This document shows, in pieces, positions 17,362 to 51,029 of a DNA stretch of 64,000 bases. The position numbers and the translations under genes are program-made. The DNA is from a virus. Position 1 is the first letter of the stretch, and each line of letters starts with the position of its first letter. The stretch is taken from the UHGV virus genome UHGV-0275551. The stretch is one strand, 5' to 3'. The notes below the pieces were generated by a model. That model was not told the origin of the DNA, did not search any database, and saw nothing but the letters and a program-made list of their open reading frames with translations.

Positions 17362-18147
17362 TTAGTTCTTTGCGTCTAAGAAGGTAACTTCTGGTGAAGA
17401 GAAGACCGTCTCGATATCCTCATCAGTTCTTGCATAAATATATGTATCTGCATCACTGCCAAATGTTACGGCTATCCTGTGATTGCTCTTCGACAGGTGG
17501 GTAACTAGAGCGTTACTTAGAGACATCTTCTCAACCGGAGGGTTACTTTGATGTATCTTACCTTTTCTTCGTCTGAAGAGGGTAACTGTATCATCTTTGA
17601 ACGTTACTACACCTGCAAAGTATTCTGGTTCACAGTAGTTATTCCAACCTGAGCGTAACTTGTGGTACATCTCTCCTTCGTAGACATACAGATAAACATC
17701 TACACTCTTCATCACCTGATTAATGATAACTGTGACGGCTTGAGGGTCAAGTCCACCGATACCTGCACCAATCATAGGTAAACCAACCTTCTTCAACTGA
17801 TTAACTTCACAGTATCTGTTAAGCTGTTTCAAAGATGACTCTAAAGCACTGTATCGGGCATCTTTACCAGTCTTAAGCTGAGTGTAAAGGTTAGCTATAC
17901 GACCTTGTTTTAAACGTGCTACAGAGAAATTACCCAGTAAATTTTCACAAGGTTTGTGTCCTATACCACCTGCATATAGATAAACTTCTGTATCGGTCTC
18001 ATATGCTTTTGGGTAAAGTTTAGAAATCTTGTCAGCGATACCTGCACCCATTAAGTTCATACAGTTGCAACCGTGACCGATGATGTCAAACTTACCTTTA
18101 TCAAATGCGGCAAAGATATCACCATTAATTATTTTTACAATACCCAT
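17362..18147 (-). CDS. macro-domain protein (TARG1/DarG-like fold) with C-terminal extension
   Basis: N-terminus GDIF...GHGCNCMNLMGAGIA and later LPMIGAGIGGLDP match macro-domain signature positions; SD GGGAGAG. Confidence 0.55.
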   Translation of the reverse strand: MGIVKIINGDIFAAFDKGKFDIIGHGCNCMNLMGAGIADKISKLYPKAYETDTEVYLYAGGIGHKPCENLLGNFSVARLKQGRIANLYTQLKTGKDARYSALESSLKQLNRYCEVNQLKKVGLPMIGAGIGGLDPQAVTVIINQVMKSVDVYLYVYEGEMYHKLRSGWNNYCEPEYFAGVVTFKDDTVTLFRRRKGKIHQSNPPVEKMSLSNALVTHLSKSNHRIAVTFGSDADTYIYARTDEDIETVFSSPEVTFLDAKN

Positions 18148-25282: not shown

Positions 25283-25599
25283 GACTCACCTCTCATATTT
25301 TTGTAAAGGATAAAGCTTCTGTCATGGACGATACTTGTAGATACTGCAAAGTTACTTTCAAGCATCTGTTTGTTTGGATTGTAGAAGCTTTTTTTAAACT
25401 CGTCAAGCGCAAATTGGTGGTTGTCTGGAAGACCTTTTACACAAACTTTTATTGTGACTGCTGCTGCAATCTTACCATTCAGTTCTTCTTTAGCTGCTAC
25501 TAAAATTTTGTTAAGGAACTTTTTACCATCTTCAGGTTTCTTAATATTCTCCCAACGTTCTTCTAAGACAATGTTGATGTTCATCTCTTTGATTTTCAT
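25264..25599 (-). CDS. hypothetical protein
   Basis: 111-aa ORF. Confidence 0.5.
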   Translation of the reverse strand: MKIKEMNINIVLEERWENIKKPEDGKKFLNKILVAAKEELNGKIAAAVTIKVCVKGLPDNHQFALDEFKKSFYNPNKQMLESNFAVSTSIVHDRSFILYKNMRGESCKHIG

Positions 25600-25600
25600 A

Positions 25601-25628
25601 ATCTTCTCCAGAAATTAAAAAGGCTCCC
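25601..25628 (-). terminator. rho-independent terminator after the NAMPT-like gene
   Basis: Minus-strand GGCTCC-uacg-GGAGCC followed by UUUUUAAUUUC. Confidence 0.65.
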
Positions 25629-25652
25629 GTAGGAGCCTCTTATCATATACTT

Positions 25653-27434
25653 TTAAAGCTGCTTGTCAATATTATTTCGAATATCACCAAGAGTTGTGTA
25701 ACCGTACTGCTCAGAGTCGCTAAAGACTAAACGTAAAGCACAAGCTGGATGTTCAAGTGCATCTGCAAAGCTCTGGAATCCATAGCCATCTACAGCTTTC
25801 AAATTCTCACCATCCCACATAGGTGCTACACCACCAAAGGCAGATTTCTTAACACCACTATCTGTTTTAGGGTCTTTTGCAAGCATAATCTCTTTGCCAC
25901 CAATGCTTGCAAGAGTTGCTTTGACAGCAAATGCAAAGGTGTCACGAGTCATGTACTGGTAAGTGTAAGAGCCTACACCAAACACTACGTTAGAGCTTGC
26001 AAAACCCATTTCATACAGACGCTTCAGGATTTCGTTTGCACGTTCCAACGTGATAGAGTCACCATAGATAAGTCCAATGTGCTCATCCAGTACCTTAAAA
26101 CCTTTAGAGTTGATAGTTCCTCCAAAGATGTTATACAAGGTCTTAATAGCTCCATCAATCTCTGCTACAGGGCGTGTTACAACGTTTGCAGAACCAACCA
26201 TATAAGCGTTCTTCAACATCACTGTATCAGCAACTTCAAAGTCTTCTCTGTCAACAACCATTTCGTAGCCTTCTGACAGTAGCCATCCAGCAATACCATA
26301 GCTGATGTTTTCAAGCTTCATGTTCAGAACAGCATTCAGCATTGTGTCACTGGCTTCCAGATTGCTTAGGTGCTCATAATAAGCCTTTTTAGCACACTCT
26401 AAGTGGATTGCTTTATAACCTGTGACAATGTGTACAGGGTCTCCAGAGTCAGGACGAATTACCAGTTTGCCATCACGTTCCATAATTTCTTTACGGAGTG
26501 CTGGTAAGATTTCTGACACAGTTCTCCAGAAGTTATAAGTGTCTGAAACAACACTTGCAATACCAGTTGGATAAGTTTCTGTTAAGAAGCGACGGAAGGT
26601 TTGCAACTCACCTTTAAAGCGTCTTTCTTCTTCAACCAACTCATTACCACCTTCCCAAGCAATGTTTGCACACATTACAGAGTGTTCAGTGGCTGGTACA
26701 GAACCACCAATATCAGAGACTGGGTAAGACTGTCCGTAGATGCGTTTAGCTGTATATACAGCAGGGAAGCTATCAGTCCCTTTAAAGCTGGTTAAGTGGC
26801 CTACAGCGTTAAATGCGTCATCAGTAAAGCCGGACATACCACGCATAGCAAAGTCATGGCACTGATAAGGTAAATGTAAGTCATTGTCGCAAGTAAGGTC
26901 AGCCCACTTCTTACAGATGCGTTTATAATGCAATGCAATAGTTGCAATGGTACAAGCCTTCCAAATCTCAGCAGAGAAAGCATCTTCCAGATATCCCGCT
27001 ACCCAATGGAAACCTGAAACAGTGTTCTGGAAGACAATCATTGGTACACGCATAGGAACAACTGTACCTTCTTCTACAGCGTATACTTCAACTGGTAGAT
27101 AACCTAAGTCGTGAAGTGCTTCCCAATGCTCTCGACCGATAGCATCTTTACCCAGAACACCATTCATGACTTCTAAGATTTCATCAATGGCTTCTTTTTT
27201 ATCACGTTCAAAGAAAGTGGCGTTCCAGTGGTCTATCAAGTAATCTTTAACGAAACGTTGAATACCAAAAGCTACTACACCATCAATTGCTAAGGGGCTG
27301 TTAAACCACTTATCACTACGTGGTGTCAGGTTCAACATAAGATATTGCGTAGCATCTGGATACTGATATATATGTGATGCCTTGTAAGCATCTGCATTAA
27401 GACCTGCTGGTACTGCGTAAAGTGACTTACTCAT
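25653..27434 (-). CDS. nicotinamide phosphoribosyltransferase family protein (NAMPT-like; possible Namat-type)
   Basis: N-terminal DAYKASHIYQYP (TDSYK-like) and C-terminal GDSIT...VVFGVGSYTYQY match NAMPT family motifs. Confidence 0.8.
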   Translation of the reverse strand: MSKSLYAVPAGLNADAYKASHIYQYPDATQYLMLNLTPRSDKWFNSPLAIDGVVAFGIQRFVKDYLIDHWNATFFERDKKEAIDEILEVMNGVLGKDAIGREHWEALHDLGYLPVEVYAVEEGTVVPMRVPMIVFQNTVSGFHWVAGYLEDAFSAEIWKACTIATIALHYKRICKKWADLTCDNDLHLPYQCHDFAMRGMSGFTDDAFNAVGHLTSFKGTDSFPAVYTAKRIYGQSYPVSDIGGSVPATEHSVMCANIAWEGGNELVEEERRFKGELQTFRRFLTETYPTGIASVVSDTYNFWRTVSEILPALRKEIMERDGKLVIRPDSGDPVHIVTGYKAIHLECAKKAYYEHLSNLEASDTMLNAVLNMKLENISYGIAGWLLSEGYEMVVDREDFEVADTVMLKNAYMVGSANVVTRPVAEIDGAIKTLYNIFGGTINSKGFKVLDEHIGLIYGDSITLERANEILKRLYEMGFASSNVVFGVGSYTYQYMTRDTFAFAVKATLASIGGKEIMLAKDPKTDSGVKKSAFGGVAPMWDGENLKAVDGYGFQSFADALEHPACALRLVFSDSEQYGYTTLGDIRNNIDKQL

Positions 27435-27450
27435 ATTTTATCTCTCTCTC

Positions 27451-27942
27451 TTAGTTATGTCTTGCAAACTCACCATGAAGTTCTATTCGCTTTTTAATTA
27501 CAGCTTCTTTTGCTTCTTCTACCGTTTTAAATCTTCCACAAAAGTATTCTTTATGGTAAAGCATGACTCTTGCTTTGTAAAGACCTGTTTGTTTACAAAA
27601 ACTTACACCCTTCACACCAGTTTTATTATTCTTGTATATACCCCTATTCCTCTGATTTTGTGACTTTGTGCTAAGTCTTAAATTATCCAACTTATTATTA
27701 GATTTATCAAGGTCTATGTGGTCTATCTCATATCCACTTGGTATCTCACCTCCAGACATAATCCATGCAATATTATGTGCATAGTACCTCTTCTTATTTA
27801 TCTGGACTTGGATATAACCCTTCTTAGACCTTGTGCCAGCCACATTACCAGCAATAGCGGTACTGCAAAGGGTTACTCTCCAAATTAATAAACCTGTATC
27901 TGGTTCATATATTAGGTATCTTTCAAAATAACCCTTATTCAT
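27451..27942 (-). CDS. HNH homing endonuclease with C-terminal AP2-like DNA-binding domain
   Basis: EIDHIDLDKSNNKLDNLRL...QNQRN HNH motif; C-terminal GV..RV...GK..FKTVEEA; paralog at 50517-51029. Confidence 0.7.
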   Translation of the reverse strand: MNKGYFERYLIYEPDTGLLIWRVTLCSTAIAGNVAGTRSKKGYIQVQINKKRYYAHNIAWIMSGGEIPSGYEIDHIDLDKSNNKLDNLRLSTKSQNQRNRGIYKNNKTGVKGVSFCKQTGLYKARVMLYHKEYFCGRFKTVEEAKEAVIKKRIELHGEFARHN

Positions 27943-27950
27943 ACTGTTAC

Positions 27951-28832
27951 CTAATCAATGGTTGCTACAGTAACTTGACCATAATGTGTTAAGCCACGGT
28001 CTTTAGCTTCCCCTAAAGAGTTTGTAGTGTAGATGTGGTCAATGCCATTGTCAAGAAGGTTTTCAACATCTTTAGAGAAGATACCGTGTGTTACATAGAG
28101 TTCCACACGTTTTGCACCTGCTTCACGAAGATGTTTAGCTGCTTCTATGAAGGTTCGACCACCATCACAGATATCATCCAGAATCATGACGGTTTTATCT
28201 GTCAAATCAACATCATCAAGGATTCGCATACCAGTAATTTCACCAGTCTTAAGGTTGCGTACTTTAGACATTGTGATATATGGTTTATCCACCTCTTTAG
28301 CAGTCTCTGCAATCTTCTTAGCAGCACCTGCATCTGGGGCTACTAAGTAATCAATCAGTGGGTCATTTGCATAGTGGACTGCAATTTCCTTTTGAGGAAT
28401 ACTCTGGAAGCAGTTAAACAGGTTATCTGGTACATAGCTGTGAGGGTCAACTGCACAGACTGCACCAAATCTCATTGCATTTACCTGTTTAGCAAAAACC
28501 TTTAAAGCTGCTGCGTCGCCTTTAAACATGTGACGGTCATAACGTGCATTTGGTAAGTAGTAAAAGATGACAGTCTTTAAAGCATAATCATGAGGAATTA
28601 AATCATCAATTGCTTCTTTAGCAAGTGCCACAGCAAACAATGTATCCTTATCATAACCTTTTACAATCATAATCACATTGTTGATGGATGATGCTGCATA
28701 AGCAGTGAAATCAACAAACTCTGGCGAAAAGTGTCCACCAATCTCACCAGAAGGAAATTGGATGATGTTAAACTCTTCTTCATGAGTTCCTTTAGTTGGT
28801 GAATGAACTGTAACACGGATAGATGTTTTCAT
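27951..28832 (-). CDS. ribose-phosphate pyrophosphokinase family protein (PRS-like; possible Adps-type)
   Basis: PRPP-binding loop VMILDDICDGGRTF; track start is TTG 28847, ATG 28832 has SD GAGAGAGA. Confidence 0.8.
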   Translation of the reverse strand: MKTSIRVTVHSPTKGTHEEEFNIIQFPSGEIGGHFSPEFVDFTAYAASSINNVIMIVKGYDKDTLFAVALAKEAIDDLIPHDYALKTVIFYYLPNARYDRHMFKGDAAALKVFAKQVNAMRFGAVCAVDPHSYVPDNLFNCFQSIPQKEIAVHYANDPLIDYLVAPDAGAAKKIAETAKEVDKPYITMSKVRNLKTGEITGMRILDDVDLTDKTVMILDDICDGGRTFIEAAKHLREAGAKRVELYVTHGIFSKDVENLLDNGIDHIYTTNSLGEAKDRGLTHYGQVTVATID

Positions 28833-28843
28833 AGTTTTCTCTC

Positions 28844-29122
28844 TCAATCAAAAGTTACGTTTGTTACTGCCATTGCAGATTTGCATTTTGCAGGGTCTAC
28901 AACGTGATAAAGTACACTACAGTTACCTGTACTGTCTGGTACAGGTTTAACCCATTGTTGCTTGACAGTTGGTTCGCCTAAGTCTTTGTAAGAACCATCT
29001 GTAAAATTGTTTACCATCTCAAGTGCAATTGGTTCTGGAACATGACCACGTATCATGTACATCTCACAACCATTACCACCTTCACTCACTAATGGTAAAA
29101 TTTCCCACTTCTCTTTAGCCAT
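28844..29122 (-). CDS. hypothetical protein
   Basis: 92-aa ORF. Confidence 0.5.
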   Translation of the reverse strand: MAKEKWEILPLVSEGGNGCEMYMIRGHVPEPIALEMVNNFTDGSYKDLGEPTVKQQWVKPVPDSTGNCSVLYHVVDPAKCKSAMAVTNVTFD

Positions 29123-29630
29123 TGTAAGTTGCCCTATAAACTGTCTCGAACTTCAACAGGAGAGATATTGCCAAATCTGTATAGTTGTTGTCAAGCACCT
29201 CTGGCATATTATTTTTGATATATTTCTCTTGCTCTTCATAGGTCATCTTAGGTGTGCTTAGAAGGTTATCCCCTTGCTTCTGGTTATCAGCTTTAGTTTG
29301 GATAAACCAGTTCGCACAGTGATGTTCACCACCTTTTGTAACAGGTTTGTGGTGGCCTAGTGTAAATGTTTGCTTACCCGTATACCTGCAAAGATTGTTC
29401 AGTGTTGCAATGGTGTTCTTCACAACACACCATTCATACAGGTTATCTATTGTGTAGTGTGGGTAATAACGGACAAGTGCTCTTTCACGGAAGTTATCAC
29501 GATTCCAAAGAACCATGTGATTCGAGTTAGAAGGGTCGTATTGGTGGGAGTCAATGAACTCTTGACGTTCCTCAAAGCTGAGTCTTAGAACTGACATTGC
29601 AGCAGAACGTTTCAGATTTGACAGGTACAT
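29115..29630 (-). CDS. putative HNH-family nuclease
   Basis: LGHHKPVTKGGEHHCANWFIQTKADNQ resembles an HNH core. Confidence 0.4.
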   Translation of the reverse strand: MYLSNLKRSAAMSVLRLSFEERQEFIDSHQYDPSNSNHMVLWNRDNFRERALVRYYPHYTIDNLYEWCVVKNTIATLNNLCRYTGKQTFTLGHHKPVTKGGEHHCANWFIQTKADNQKQGDNLLSTPKMTYEEQEKYIKNNMPEVLDNNYTDLAISLLLKFETVYRATYNG

Positions 29631-29640
29631 ACTATCTCCA

Positions 29641-29670
29641 AAATAAAAAGGGAACCTTTACAGTTCCCTT
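29641..29670 (-). terminator. rho-independent terminator
   Basis: Minus-strand AGGGAAC-uguaaag-GUUCCCU followed by UUUUUAUUUU. Confidence 0.65.
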
Positions 29671-50516: not shown

Positions 50517-51029
50517 ATGATTACAGAAATTCGCTTAAAGGAGCTTTTAGAGTATGACCCCGATGCAGGGGTCTTTACTTGGAAGTTTAGAGAAGGTAAT
50601 GCAAACTTTAACTCTAGATTTGGAGGTAAGAGGGCTGGAAACTACAGAACAAATACTGATGGACACAAGTCAGTTCAGTTGTTGATTGATGGAAGGAGTT
50701 ACCAAGCAAATCGTTTAGTTATCTTGTATGTGGATGGATATCTGCCTGATAAAACCTTACAGGTTGACCATAAGAATGGGGACGGTTGGGACAATAGGTA
50801 CTTGAATTTAAGGGTTTGTACAGCTTCACAAAACGCTTGCAATCGGTCAAGAAAGTCCCCATCTGGGTTGCCAAAAGGTGTACAGAAGATAAATAAAAGG
50901 TTTCGAGCAATGATACGTTTACAAGGCAAAAACTATCATCTTGGTATGTTTGACACGCCTGAAGAAGCCCATAAAGCTTACTGTGAAGCTGCTGTGAAAC
51001 TCCACGGAGAGTTTGCAAAACTAAGTTGA
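50517..51029 (+). CDS. HNH homing endonuclease with AP2-like domain
   Basis: VDHKNGDGWDNRYLNLR...SQN HNH core; C-terminus parallels 27451-27942. Confidence 0.65.
   Translation: MITEIRLKELLEYDPDAGVFTWKFREGNANFNSRFGGKRAGNYRTNTDGHKSVQLLIDGRSYQANRLVILYVDGYLPDKTLQVDHKNGDGWDNRYLNLRVCTASQNACNRSRKSPSGLPKGVQKINKRFRAMIRLQGKNYHLGMFDTPEEAHKAYCEAAVKLHGEFAKLS

Follow-up and report, generated by a model that had tools for sequence, protein, structure and literature searches.

NAD+ reconstitution pathway 1 (NARP1), by which phages rebuild NAD+ from the debris of NAD-depleting immunity, is an important recent discovery. The phage of its discovery is Bas63 (JohannRWettstein), in which the pathway was tested by deletion. 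Loss of gp79-80 resulted in ~20-fold fewer plaques on SIR2-HerA, while NAD+ was partly restored by wild-type Bas63. ADPR-PP was observed only when infection with the wild-type phage was combined with this defence system, and the effect of gp79-80 needs neither host pncC nor nadR (Osterman et al., bioRxiv 10.1101/2024.02.11.579819). As the Bas63 enzymes did not purify, the biochemistry comes from the ~37–38% identical homologues of the Bacillus phage SpbetaL1, for which crystal structures of Namat (9w5w/9w5x) are also available (NAR 2026, PMC12774641). SpbetaL1 Adps uses ADPR and ATP, and SpbetaL1 Namat prefers ADPR-PP over PRPP. Both steps, ADPR + ATP to ADPR-PP and ADPR-PP + nicotinamide to NAD+, have been demonstrated with the SpbetaL1, DyoEdafos and P. 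foliorum enzymes, and Namat can also form NMN from PRPP in vitro.

Two further systems are relevant here. In the Vibrio phage Gary the operon is Adps-Adpp-Namat, an extended form called NARP1-AP (NARP1 with associated Adpp phosphatase), with a Macro phosphatase between the two enzymes (bioRxiv 10.64898/2026.01.28.702374). NARP2 of the Vibrio phage KVP40 (Nampt + Nmnat) likewise employs a Nampt-family enzyme against NAD+ depletion; it differs in needing an NMN adenylyltransferase and in having no Adps. We compare with these systems a locus in the window, that is, the whole 64-kb stretch (64,000 nucleotides) of the virus genome UHGV-0275551 that was analysed.

The operon and its surroundings

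The window derives from a Felixounavirus (Felix O1-like phage); 256–258 phage records are related to it, with identities of up to 96%. As the original prediction had it, a Prs-like, an HNH and a Nampt-like gene lie on the minus strand, and all three reading frames are intact: adps at 27951–28832 (293 aa), the HNH gene at 27451–27942 (163 aa) and namat at 25653–27434 (593 aa). They follow each other in this order with spacers of 8 and 16 nt, the 163-aa ORF being the only one in between, so that adps and namat are close together (within 10 genes) on one strand, the arrangement by which NARP1 is recognised. Both are preceded by a GAGAGAGA ribosome-binding site. The ORF listing extends adps to a TTG at 28847; the ATG at 28832, which sits behind the purine-rich GAGAGAGA site, agrees with the Bas63 and Felix O1 annotations.

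The unit holding the three genes has terminator-like hairpins at both ends, each on the minus strand. The downstream one (25618–25641), 12 nt past the namat stop, has a 10-bp stem with 5 GC pairs followed by TTTTTAATTT. The one at the upstream edge (29648–29670) has a 9-bp stem and then a T-run; it counts as positional evidence only, because chance alone would give 3.8 such sites in the scan, in which 4 were found. Within the unit and upstream of adps lie two conserved minus-strand ORFs (28844–29630), equal to Bas63 gp77 and gp78: one of 171 aa (29115–29630) with a GHHKP..GGEHH..NW motif and one of 92 aa (28844–29122). They fall in PHROGs 3500 and 4726, neither of which carries a functional annotation. 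The 171-aa protein is found at 38–45% identity in distant relatives, there also upstream of adps.

The flanking genes of the locus are the same in the window and in Bas63, and so are the genus and the protein lengths. There are also differences: Bas63 is devoid of the HNH gene and has a 45-nt spacer with a hairpin instead, it carries another allele of Adps codons 1–160 and the HNH-minus 5′ tract of namat, and an extra 114-aa ORF (gp81), missing from the window, follows its namat. The module had been put forward as a candidate for NAD+ reconstitution. The assignment to NARP1 stands; the status of a candidate does not, as the founding NARP1 example came from the same genus and the module is therefore already known. 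The locus represents a described pathway and no new principle.

Two enzymes and the probable route to NAD+

The product of adps is the orthologue of Bas63 gp79 (79% identity, ungapped, equal length) and is 38% identical to Gary Adps, which is functional. It matches PHROG 619 (3e-96) and, in Pfam, Pribosyltran (1e-11) and Pribosyl_synth (4.5e-10), while Pribosyltran_N was absent from it in the Pfam profile search. Similarity to cellular Prs structures reaches E values of 1e-9 to 5e-17 at best. The NCBIfam Prs equivalog models all failed, with 40–103 bits against cut-offs of 296–536 (e.g. 85 versus 297), and the broad subfamily model TIGR01251 was passed narrowly (114.6 versus 113 bits). Judged by sequence, the protein belongs to the phage Adps clade, of which Bas63 Adps is a seed, and is remote from cellular Prs. 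Its predicted catalytic Lys190 (codon at 28263–28265) is invariant in a seven-sequence alignment (A8) and aligns, in the context LKIRDVLTG, with K192 of Gary, the target of the K192A mutation (bioRxiv 10.64898/2026.01.28.702374). Further counterparts would be K197 of B. subtilis Prs and K162 of SpbetaL1, the latter equivalence being drawn from the paper. Over its 5′ ~480 nt (~160 codons), adps is an allele that diverges from those of Bas63 and Felix O1, with 47–78% nucleotide identity to the Bas63 allele per 60-nt bin.

Namat is the orthologue of Bas63 gp80 (97% identity, ungapped, equal length), and 7 of its first 35 residues differ from the Bas63 protein. The family matches, like those of the other two proteins far beyond chance, are NCBIfam NF006629 (4e-141) and PHROG 448 (1e-202). 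Among solved structures, the best matches are those of SpbetaL1 Namat (9w5w/9w5x, E 5e-128), before HdNadV, Xcc and human Nampt. Superposition of the AF2 model (pLDDT 93.3) on SpbetaL1 Namat gives a TM score of 0.95 (normalised to the crystal chain). The solved Namat structure has 20 residues in contact with NAD; the window protein shares 16 of them and has similar residues in the four other places. The catalytic core is kept: the catalytic R327 (= R306), D221, F195, R198, D329 and the catalytic H251, which aligns with H243, mutated in the Gary study.

The published signatures of Namat include the two elements of the selectivity clamp. The clamp helix GSYTYQYMTRD (codons 488–498; 25941–25973, minus strand) agrees with the consensus published for Namat (GSX-phi-X-phi-X-phi-TRD), positions 3 and 7 being aromatic; the counterpart of the helix is GSFTYQYNTRD in SpbetaL1 Namat, compared with GAQTYQRNTRD (HdNadV) and GGALLQKVDRD (Xcc) in Nampts. 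In the clamp loop, adenine is stacked either by Arg at position 3 or by the residue after Lys/Tyr, and Lys at the position of SpbetaL1 R40 leaves the stacking to the following residue, as in Bas63 (PMC12774641). The loop in the window is PRSDKWFNSP (codons 38–47; 27294–27323, minus strand), where K42 aligns with SpbetaL1 R40 and is followed by W43. In SpbetaL1 it is Arg40 itself that stacks on adenine; the window has Lys42-Trp43 in its place. Both loop and helix are identical to those of Bas63. With SpbetaL1 Namat the protein shares the fold, the catalytic core and the logic of the adenine clamp at ~37–38% identity, and with Gary Namat 37% identity.

The unusual length of the Nampt homologue, already remarked on in the original prediction, is real, 593 aa being ~100 aa above typical homologues (491–497 aa). 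Nevertheless, it is not a hallmark of Namat, because the SpbetaL1 enzyme is a 491-aa chain with neither insertion and the extra residues come from Ounavirinae insertions. The larger one, of ~80–90 aa (codons ~340–427; 26154–26417, minus strand), follows RPDSGDPV...GY and was modelled as a compact alpha/beta subdomain of four helices and four strands (pLDDT 93–97). It is absent from SpbetaL1 Namat and from Nampts but common to Bas63 and to Ounavirinae-like phages down to 46% identity; other Namats, that of Gary included, bear different insertions at this site. A second, smaller insertion spans codons ~259–277 (26604–26660, minus strand). Going by the alignments, the 593-aa length is due to these two insertions of the Ounavirinae lineage, in Bas63 as well.

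An NMN adenylyltransferase, which had not been recognised earlier, was again not found in the window: none of the 89 further ORFs contains a CTP_transf_like, NadR-type or NUDIX domain. For the ~22 kb of genome beyond the window, the counterpart in the Bas63 annotation, as a proxy only, consists of structural and tRNA genes. NARP2 is defined by the presence of Nmnat and the absence of Adps; the window has Adps, a Nampt homologue with the Namat clamp motif and no detected Nmnat domain. The Namat signatures and the lack of an NMNAT in the window therefore support the route from ADPR through ADPR-PP to NAD+, and the lean of the original prediction towards this route is borne out further by the orthology to Bas63 gp79-80. 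Taken together, these comparisons make it very probable that the locus is the NARP1 operon of a Felixounavirus. The activities and the anti-defence phenotype are those published for the orthologues, and we infer that the Adps and Namat activities hold for the allele of the window. Accepting this, SIR2-HerA, type I Thoeris, DSR or SEFIR defence would cleave NAD+ to ADP-ribose and nicotinamide; Adps would pyrophosphorylate ADP-ribose with ATP to ADPR-PP; and Namat would join ADPR-PP and nicotinamide directly to NAD+, with neither an NMN intermediate nor an NMN adenylyltransferase.

Two metabolic readings have to be weighed against NARP1. In the first, the module would act mainly as NARP1, and a residual conversion of PRPP to NMN by Namat would raise NAD+ by way of host enzymes in the absence of an active defence, making it in part a general metabolic booster. 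The NMN-forming activity of SpbetaL1 Namat, about half that of human Nampt, and the retention of NMN formation by clamp mutants are in line with such a dual use, and so is the presence of the module in essentially all ~256 related phages, whatever the host. Against it, ADPR-PP out-competes PRPP in vitro and, according to the aRES preprint, NARP1, unlike NARP2, acts only once depletion has happened; we regard the dual use as rather unlikely. The second, classical salvage, in which PRPP, formed from ribose-5-phosphate by the Prs-like enzyme, would react with nicotinamide on the Nampt-like enzyme to NMN, leaving host NadR or PncC to complete NAD+, would agree with the Prs and Nampt/NadV names in Pfam, NCBIfam and GenBank, with the bare pass of TIGR01251 and with the PRPP-dependent NMN synthesis that Namat keeps in vitro, but it is very hard to reconcile with the persistence of protection in a pncC nadR double-deletion host and the accumulation of ADPR-PP in the orthologous Bas63 system, with the SpbetaL1 Adps homologue, which converted ADPR and ATP and yielded nothing in the control that is reported to show it not to be a Prs, with NAD+ as the only product of Namat offered both donors, with the Prs equivalog scores far under cut-off, and with the adenine clamp in the window Namat. 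Hundreds of GenBank records list the operon with the older names, Prs and NadV; reading it as NARP1 replaces a misleading annotation as Prs/Nampt salvage.

A distal Macro-domain gene

Elsewhere in the genome, the window encodes an Adpp homologue with a putative catalytic His. This Macro-domain protein of 261 aa (17362–18147, minus strand; Pfam Macro 1e-7, residues 25–141) belongs to PHROG 335, the family of Gary Adpp, to which it is 27% identical (E 2e-13). Gary Adpp His24, mutated to H24A (bioRxiv 10.64898/2026.01.28.702374), aligns with His25 of the window protein in an HxCNC motif. In both phages the Lys of Adps and the His of Namat that were mutated in Gary are also conserved. The arrangement is not the same: the place between adps and namat that the Macro phosphatase occupies in Gary is taken by the HNH endonuclease in the window. 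There is no Macro gene in or beside the operon of the window, the only one being 7.5 kb off and extended by a C-terminal region of ~100 aa.

The Macro protein may nevertheless serve as an Adpp-like ADPR-1′′-phosphate phosphatase in trans, and we note this as a lead. In such an unlinked NARP1-AP, it would dephosphorylate the product of the RES-type (aRES) NADase, ADPR-1′′-phosphate, to ADPR, which would then be passed to Adps and Namat. This is rather unlikely at present. The supplementary files of the preprint on NARP1-AP have no entry matching 'Felix' or 'JohannRWettstein'. If true, Felix O1-like phages would resist a defence that beats plain NARP1, surveys limited to operon neighbours would overlook the arrangement, and the distal gene could matter for predicting the escape of phages from aRES-type defences.

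The HNH gene and its linked namat tract

The 163-aa ORF at 27451–27942 (minus strand) was correctly recognised from the outset as an HNH gene between the pair; it is a predicted free-standing homing-endonuclease gene inserted in the adps-namat spacer and takes no part in the pathway, being absent in Bas63 and most relatives. It matches Pfam HNH_3 over the full profile (2e-19) and PHROG 99 (5e-68). The AP2 match is weak, with 20.9 bits against the Pfam cut-off of 33.3 (E 4.6e-4), the full profile being covered. The catalytic D74-H75 motif lies at 27718–27723, and D74, H75, N87, N96 and N99 are invariant (alignment A7). With Felix O1 ORF128, located at the same site, the protein shares 90% identity, and the dN/dS of 0.14 versus Felix O1 indicates purifying selection.

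The distribution is patchy. Of 256 related phage records, 62 contain the gene, never in more than one copy, and ~76% of close relatives are without it. It occupies the same site in Felix O1, pinkbiff, D1-2, ECML-1 and SME50, while SP22, like Bas63, has the 45-nt spacer with a hairpin instead. The HNH gene has replaced this small hairpin and travels with a variant tract of ~120 nt at the 5′ end of namat (27315–27434, minus strand). Within this tract, genomes with (n = 6) and without (n = 5) the gene diverge by 18–22% and show 16 fixed differences, compared with a divergence of 2–7% within either group and no fixed difference between the groups in the remaining ~2.5 kb.

The HNH_3 catalytic motif, the placement in an intergenic gap flanked by conserved genes, the presence/absence polymorphism and the linked flanking tract are all shared with the free-standing HNH(-AP2) homing endonucleases of PHROG 99. 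The gene is an optional and dispensable selfish insertion, a mobile passenger outside the NARP1 chemistry to which a defined tract in namat is linked. That it has been domesticated instead, as a regulator or a nuclease cooperating with NARP1, would suit the purifying selection and the 53–56% identical homologue found in the adps-namat gap of distant phages, despite no more than 38–50% identity in Adps and Namat, but is most improbable given the many close relatives without the gene, among them Bas63 with its working NARP1, a paralogue after the DNA polymerase gene, and the sharply bounded linked tract and presence/absence polymorphism that are the classic pattern of a homing endonuclease.

For the mobile endonuclease, the ~120 nt are presumed to be a target-site or an immunity/co-conversion tract. 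They probably hold the cleavage-resistant form of its target site, and the HNH-less namat alleles would be the ones cleaved. The phage tootiki lacks the HNH gene yet has the tract of the HNH-bearing genomes, and tract A was found at an identity of at least 95% in 82 records, versus the 62 with the gene.

Identity of the operon and its orthology with Bas63

Three minus-strand ORFs were confirmed by their positions and profile matches where the original prediction had placed them: namat, for a Nampt-like protein of 593 aa (25653-27434); the HNH gene, in the middle, with 163 aa (27451-27942); and adps, for a Prs-like protein of 293 aa counted from the ATG (27951-28832). The adps ORF is also open to a TTG five codons 5' of this ATG; the ATG is preceded by a purine-rich GAGAGAGA site, and related phages are annotated with the same start. 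Judged by profile searches, family membership of all three proteins is left in no doubt: the Nampt-like protein matches NF006629 (4e-141, exceeding the model cut-off) and PHROG 448 (1e-202), the 293-aa protein matches PHROG 619 'ribose-phosphate pyrophosphokinase' (3e-96) as well as Pfam Pribosyltran and Pribosyl_synth, and the middle protein matches HNH_3 (2e-19), with a sub-threshold match to the AP2 domain. A scan for sigma-70-like promoters gave 23 weak matches against 13.7 expected, none of which was taken as evidence.

The region is matched by 256-258 records of the phage collection, nearly all Felixounavirus (Felix O1-like) from Escherichia, Salmonella and Shigella, with 96% identity at best. 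In Felix O1 the same three-gene order is found as ORF127, ORF128 and nadV. NAD+ reconstitution pathway 1 (NARP1) was itself defined from a two-gene operon, genes 79-80, of the BASEL phage Bas63 (JohannRWettstein), a Felixounavirus, deletion of which led to a ~20-fold drop in plaquing on SIR2-HerA (bioRxiv 10.1101/2024.02.11.579819). The same study reported that wild-type Bas63 partly restored NAD+, that ADPR-pyrophosphate was seen only with wild-type Bas63 and the defence system together, and that the effect was retained in a pncC nadR double-deletion host. Enzymology was performed on the SpbetaL1 homologues: Adps turned ADPR and ATP into ADPR-PP and gave no product in the control reaction reported as showing that it is not a Prs, and Namat favoured ADPR-PP over PRPP and formed NAD+ directly (bioRxiv 10.1101/2024.02.11.579819).

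Bas63 gp80 and the window Nampt-like protein are 97% identical, both 593 aa, and gp79 and the Prs-like protein are 79% identical, both 293 aa and ungapped. NrdG, two small ORFs, rIIA and rIIB flank the operon in both phages. Bas63 differs in having an additional 114-aa ORF (gp81) between namat and the next gene (window 25599-25653; Bas63 locus 17509-17853). For some relatives the match to the 25599-25653 region is split in two and covers ~350 nt more than the query does. The reading preferred in the original prediction, that NAD+ is rebuilt from ADP-ribose and nicotinamide, is thus supported by the orthology with gp79 and gp80, together with the Namat signatures described below. The module is already known, within Felixounavirus itself; what this work adds is minor, namely the HNH-linked tract, the two alleles of adps and a distal Adpp-like gene.

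Namat and Adps signatures

Namats are defined by a Nampt-like catalytic core and an adenine 'selectivity clamp', composed of a helix with the motif GSX-phi-X-phi-X-phi-TRD, in which positions 3 and 7 are aromatic, and of a variable loop giving a stacking residue (PMC12774641). The clamp helix of the window protein reads GSYTYQYMTRD, unlike the corresponding stretch of the Nampts HdNadV (GAQTYQRNTRD) and Xcc (GGALLQKVDRD), and its clamp loop carries K42-W43, the arrangement given for Bas63 in PMC12774641. Catalytic His251 and Arg327 are kept. When 20 NAD-contacting residues were mapped with SpbetaL1 Namat as reference, 16 were identical and the other four similar (R40K, S190A, A362S, F392Y). 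In the PDB, the Namat crystal structures 9w5w and 9w5x come first, both in sequence (5e-128) and, with an AF2 model (pLDDT 93.3) as query, in fold (TM 0.95); the chains of HdNadV and of human and mouse NAMPT rank under them.

The 593-aa length had been pointed out as unusual. As a Namat diagnostic it was ruled out, the biochemically characterised SpbetaL1 chain being of 491 aa. Relative to the latter, the window protein has two insertions, ~15-20 aa past the catalytic His and ~80-90 aa past RPDSGDPV...GY (residues ~340-427), the larger of which is predicted as a compact alpha/beta subdomain in the AF2 model (pLDDT 93-97). The whole-model fold search returned Namat and Nampt structures only and is uninformative on this subdomain by itself. 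Both insertions are common to Bas63 and Ounavirinae-like phages, down to 46% identity, and other Namats, including that of Vibrio phage Gary, have differing insertions at the same point; from these alignments, the length is best read as a lineage feature, which is no evidence for or against Namat function.

Fused or interrupted forms were also encountered. In the 547-position profile of PHROG 12872, the N-terminal part aligns with Adps (E 1.6e-24) and the C-terminal part with Namat (E 3.5e-65), a possible sign of Adps-Namat fusions in some phages or of a mixed cluster. The 843-aa metagenome protein P0064 was ruled out as such a fusion, its Adps similarity (E 0.017) not being meaningful. It is homologous to Namat but interrupted at the conserved RPDSGD motif by ~350 aa, which begin with 'RPDC' and look like an intein.

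For Adps, there is no solved structure, and the structure search gave distant cellular Prs chains only (E 5e-17 to 1e-9). All NCBIfam Prs equivalog models score the window protein far under their cut-offs. The Adps of Gary, which works in E. coli, is 38% identical to it, and the invariant K190 corresponds to the lysine mutated in Gary (K192A) and SpbetaL1 (K162A). Two alleles of the first ~480 nt of adps (~160 codons; 28353-28832, minus strand) occur in the genus, one in the window and SP22 and the other in Bas63 and Felix O1. Identity between the alleles is 47-78% per 60-nt bin in this 5' part, where synonymous sites are saturated, and 85-100% in the 3' part.

The competing NARP2-type route, in which a Nampt is paired with an Nmnat, calls for an NMN adenylyltransferase. 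The statement that none was recognised in the window was borne out by a Pfam scan of its 89 further ORFs, in which domains of the cytidylyltransferase-like, NadR and NUDIX types were all missing. Sequence beyond the window was judged through Bas63 (positions 1 to ~18 kb, with structural genes, and the tRNA block). The NARP2-type route can be excluded within the limits of these sequence data.

The HNH gene and the linked namat tract

The HNH gene is no component of the pathway, because Bas63 works without it. It is absent also from SP22, which is otherwise 98% identical across the adps-namat region, and it occurs in 62 of 256 related records, in single copy every time. Its reading frame is intact, and purifying selection acts on it (dN/dS against Felix O1 0.14; adps 0.19, namat 0.045). 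The 45-nt adps-namat spacer of HNH-less phages (2358-2402 in the related locus L005; 15629-15673 in that of Bas63) holds a GC-rich hairpin, GGGGCTT/AAGCCCC followed by AUUUUG (-12.6 kcal/mol, z = -2.9), which may act between the two genes as an attenuator or in RNA stability. The HNH cassette takes the place of this hairpin and retains the GAGAGAGA ribosome-binding site of namat.

In an alignment that covered six genomes with the HNH gene and six without, differentiation between the groups is limited to the 5' ~120 nt of namat (27315-27434, minus strand). Once the recombinant tootiki is left aside, the groups diverge there by 18-22%, with 16 fixed differences, against 2-7% within them; the other ~2.5 kb of the alignment hold zero fixed differences. 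No adps bin is differentiated between these groups, and linkage of the adps N-terminal allele to the HNH gene was ruled out, both alleles being found with and without it. Tootiki has no HNH gene, yet its tract is of the HNH type from about nt 20 on. At ≥95% identity this tract is present in 82 records against 62 with the gene; therefore, some phages have the tract without the endonuclease. Such a pattern would be expected of a free-standing homing endonuclease with its target in the adjacent gene, the carriers having a resistant variant, and we infer cleavage by the HNH protein.

In two distant phages, Salmonella phage record MK759884 and Pectobacterium phage Arno162, this gap is likewise filled by an HNH_3 gene, of 164-165 aa (L010 5493-5990; L011 5497-5991). 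Their products are 53-56% identical to the window HNH protein, and the flanking proteins are less conserved (Adps 38-42%, Namat 46-50%). Since the homologues hold this gap in phages whose Adps and Namat share no more than 38-50% identity with those of the window, the association of the endonuclease lineage with it is old or recurrent. A second HNH_3 and AP2 paralogue, 31% identical to the first, lies directly 3' of the DNA polymerase gene (50517-51029, plus strand), where Bas63 has a 'putative homing endonuclease'. A SegE-type GIY-YIG ORF is present somewhere in the 30-47 kb group of the window.

A distal Macro-domain gene and neighbouring ORFs

ADPR-1''-phosphate, made by RES-type NADases, is not usable by Adps, and some phages overcome it via a Macro phosphatase (Adpp) inserted in the NARP1 operon (bioRxiv 10.64898/2026.01.28.702374). 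A Macro or RyR accessory gene within the present operon, as in NARP1-AP and RyDEP, was ruled out, the inserted gene being HNH_3. A 261-aa Macro-domain protein is encoded 7.5 kb downstream on the same strand (17362-18147, minus). Like Gary Adpp, it belongs to PHROG 335 'phosphatase'; the two are 27% identical across the Macro domain (E 2e-13), and Gary H24, mutated in the Adpp study, aligns with H25, so that the catalytic His is kept. The window protein carries an additional ~100-aa C-terminal region. A search of the supplementary files of bioRxiv 10.64898/2026.01.28.702374 gave no entry matching 'Felix' or 'JohannRWettstein'. A tie of this gene to NARP1 can be put forward only as a hypothesis, because the Macro family is also frequent among T4-like phage records.

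In Bacillus phage FADO, also a NARP1 phage, the 5-kb flanks examined around the Macro gene hold no NARP1 gene. Two further minus-strand ORFs belong to the transcription unit of adps, one at 28844-29122 and one of 171 aa with an HNH-like GHHKP..GGEHH..NW motif (29115-29630). Nothing ties the 171-aa ORF to NARP1; it is kept 5' of adps in distant relatives at 38-45% identity.
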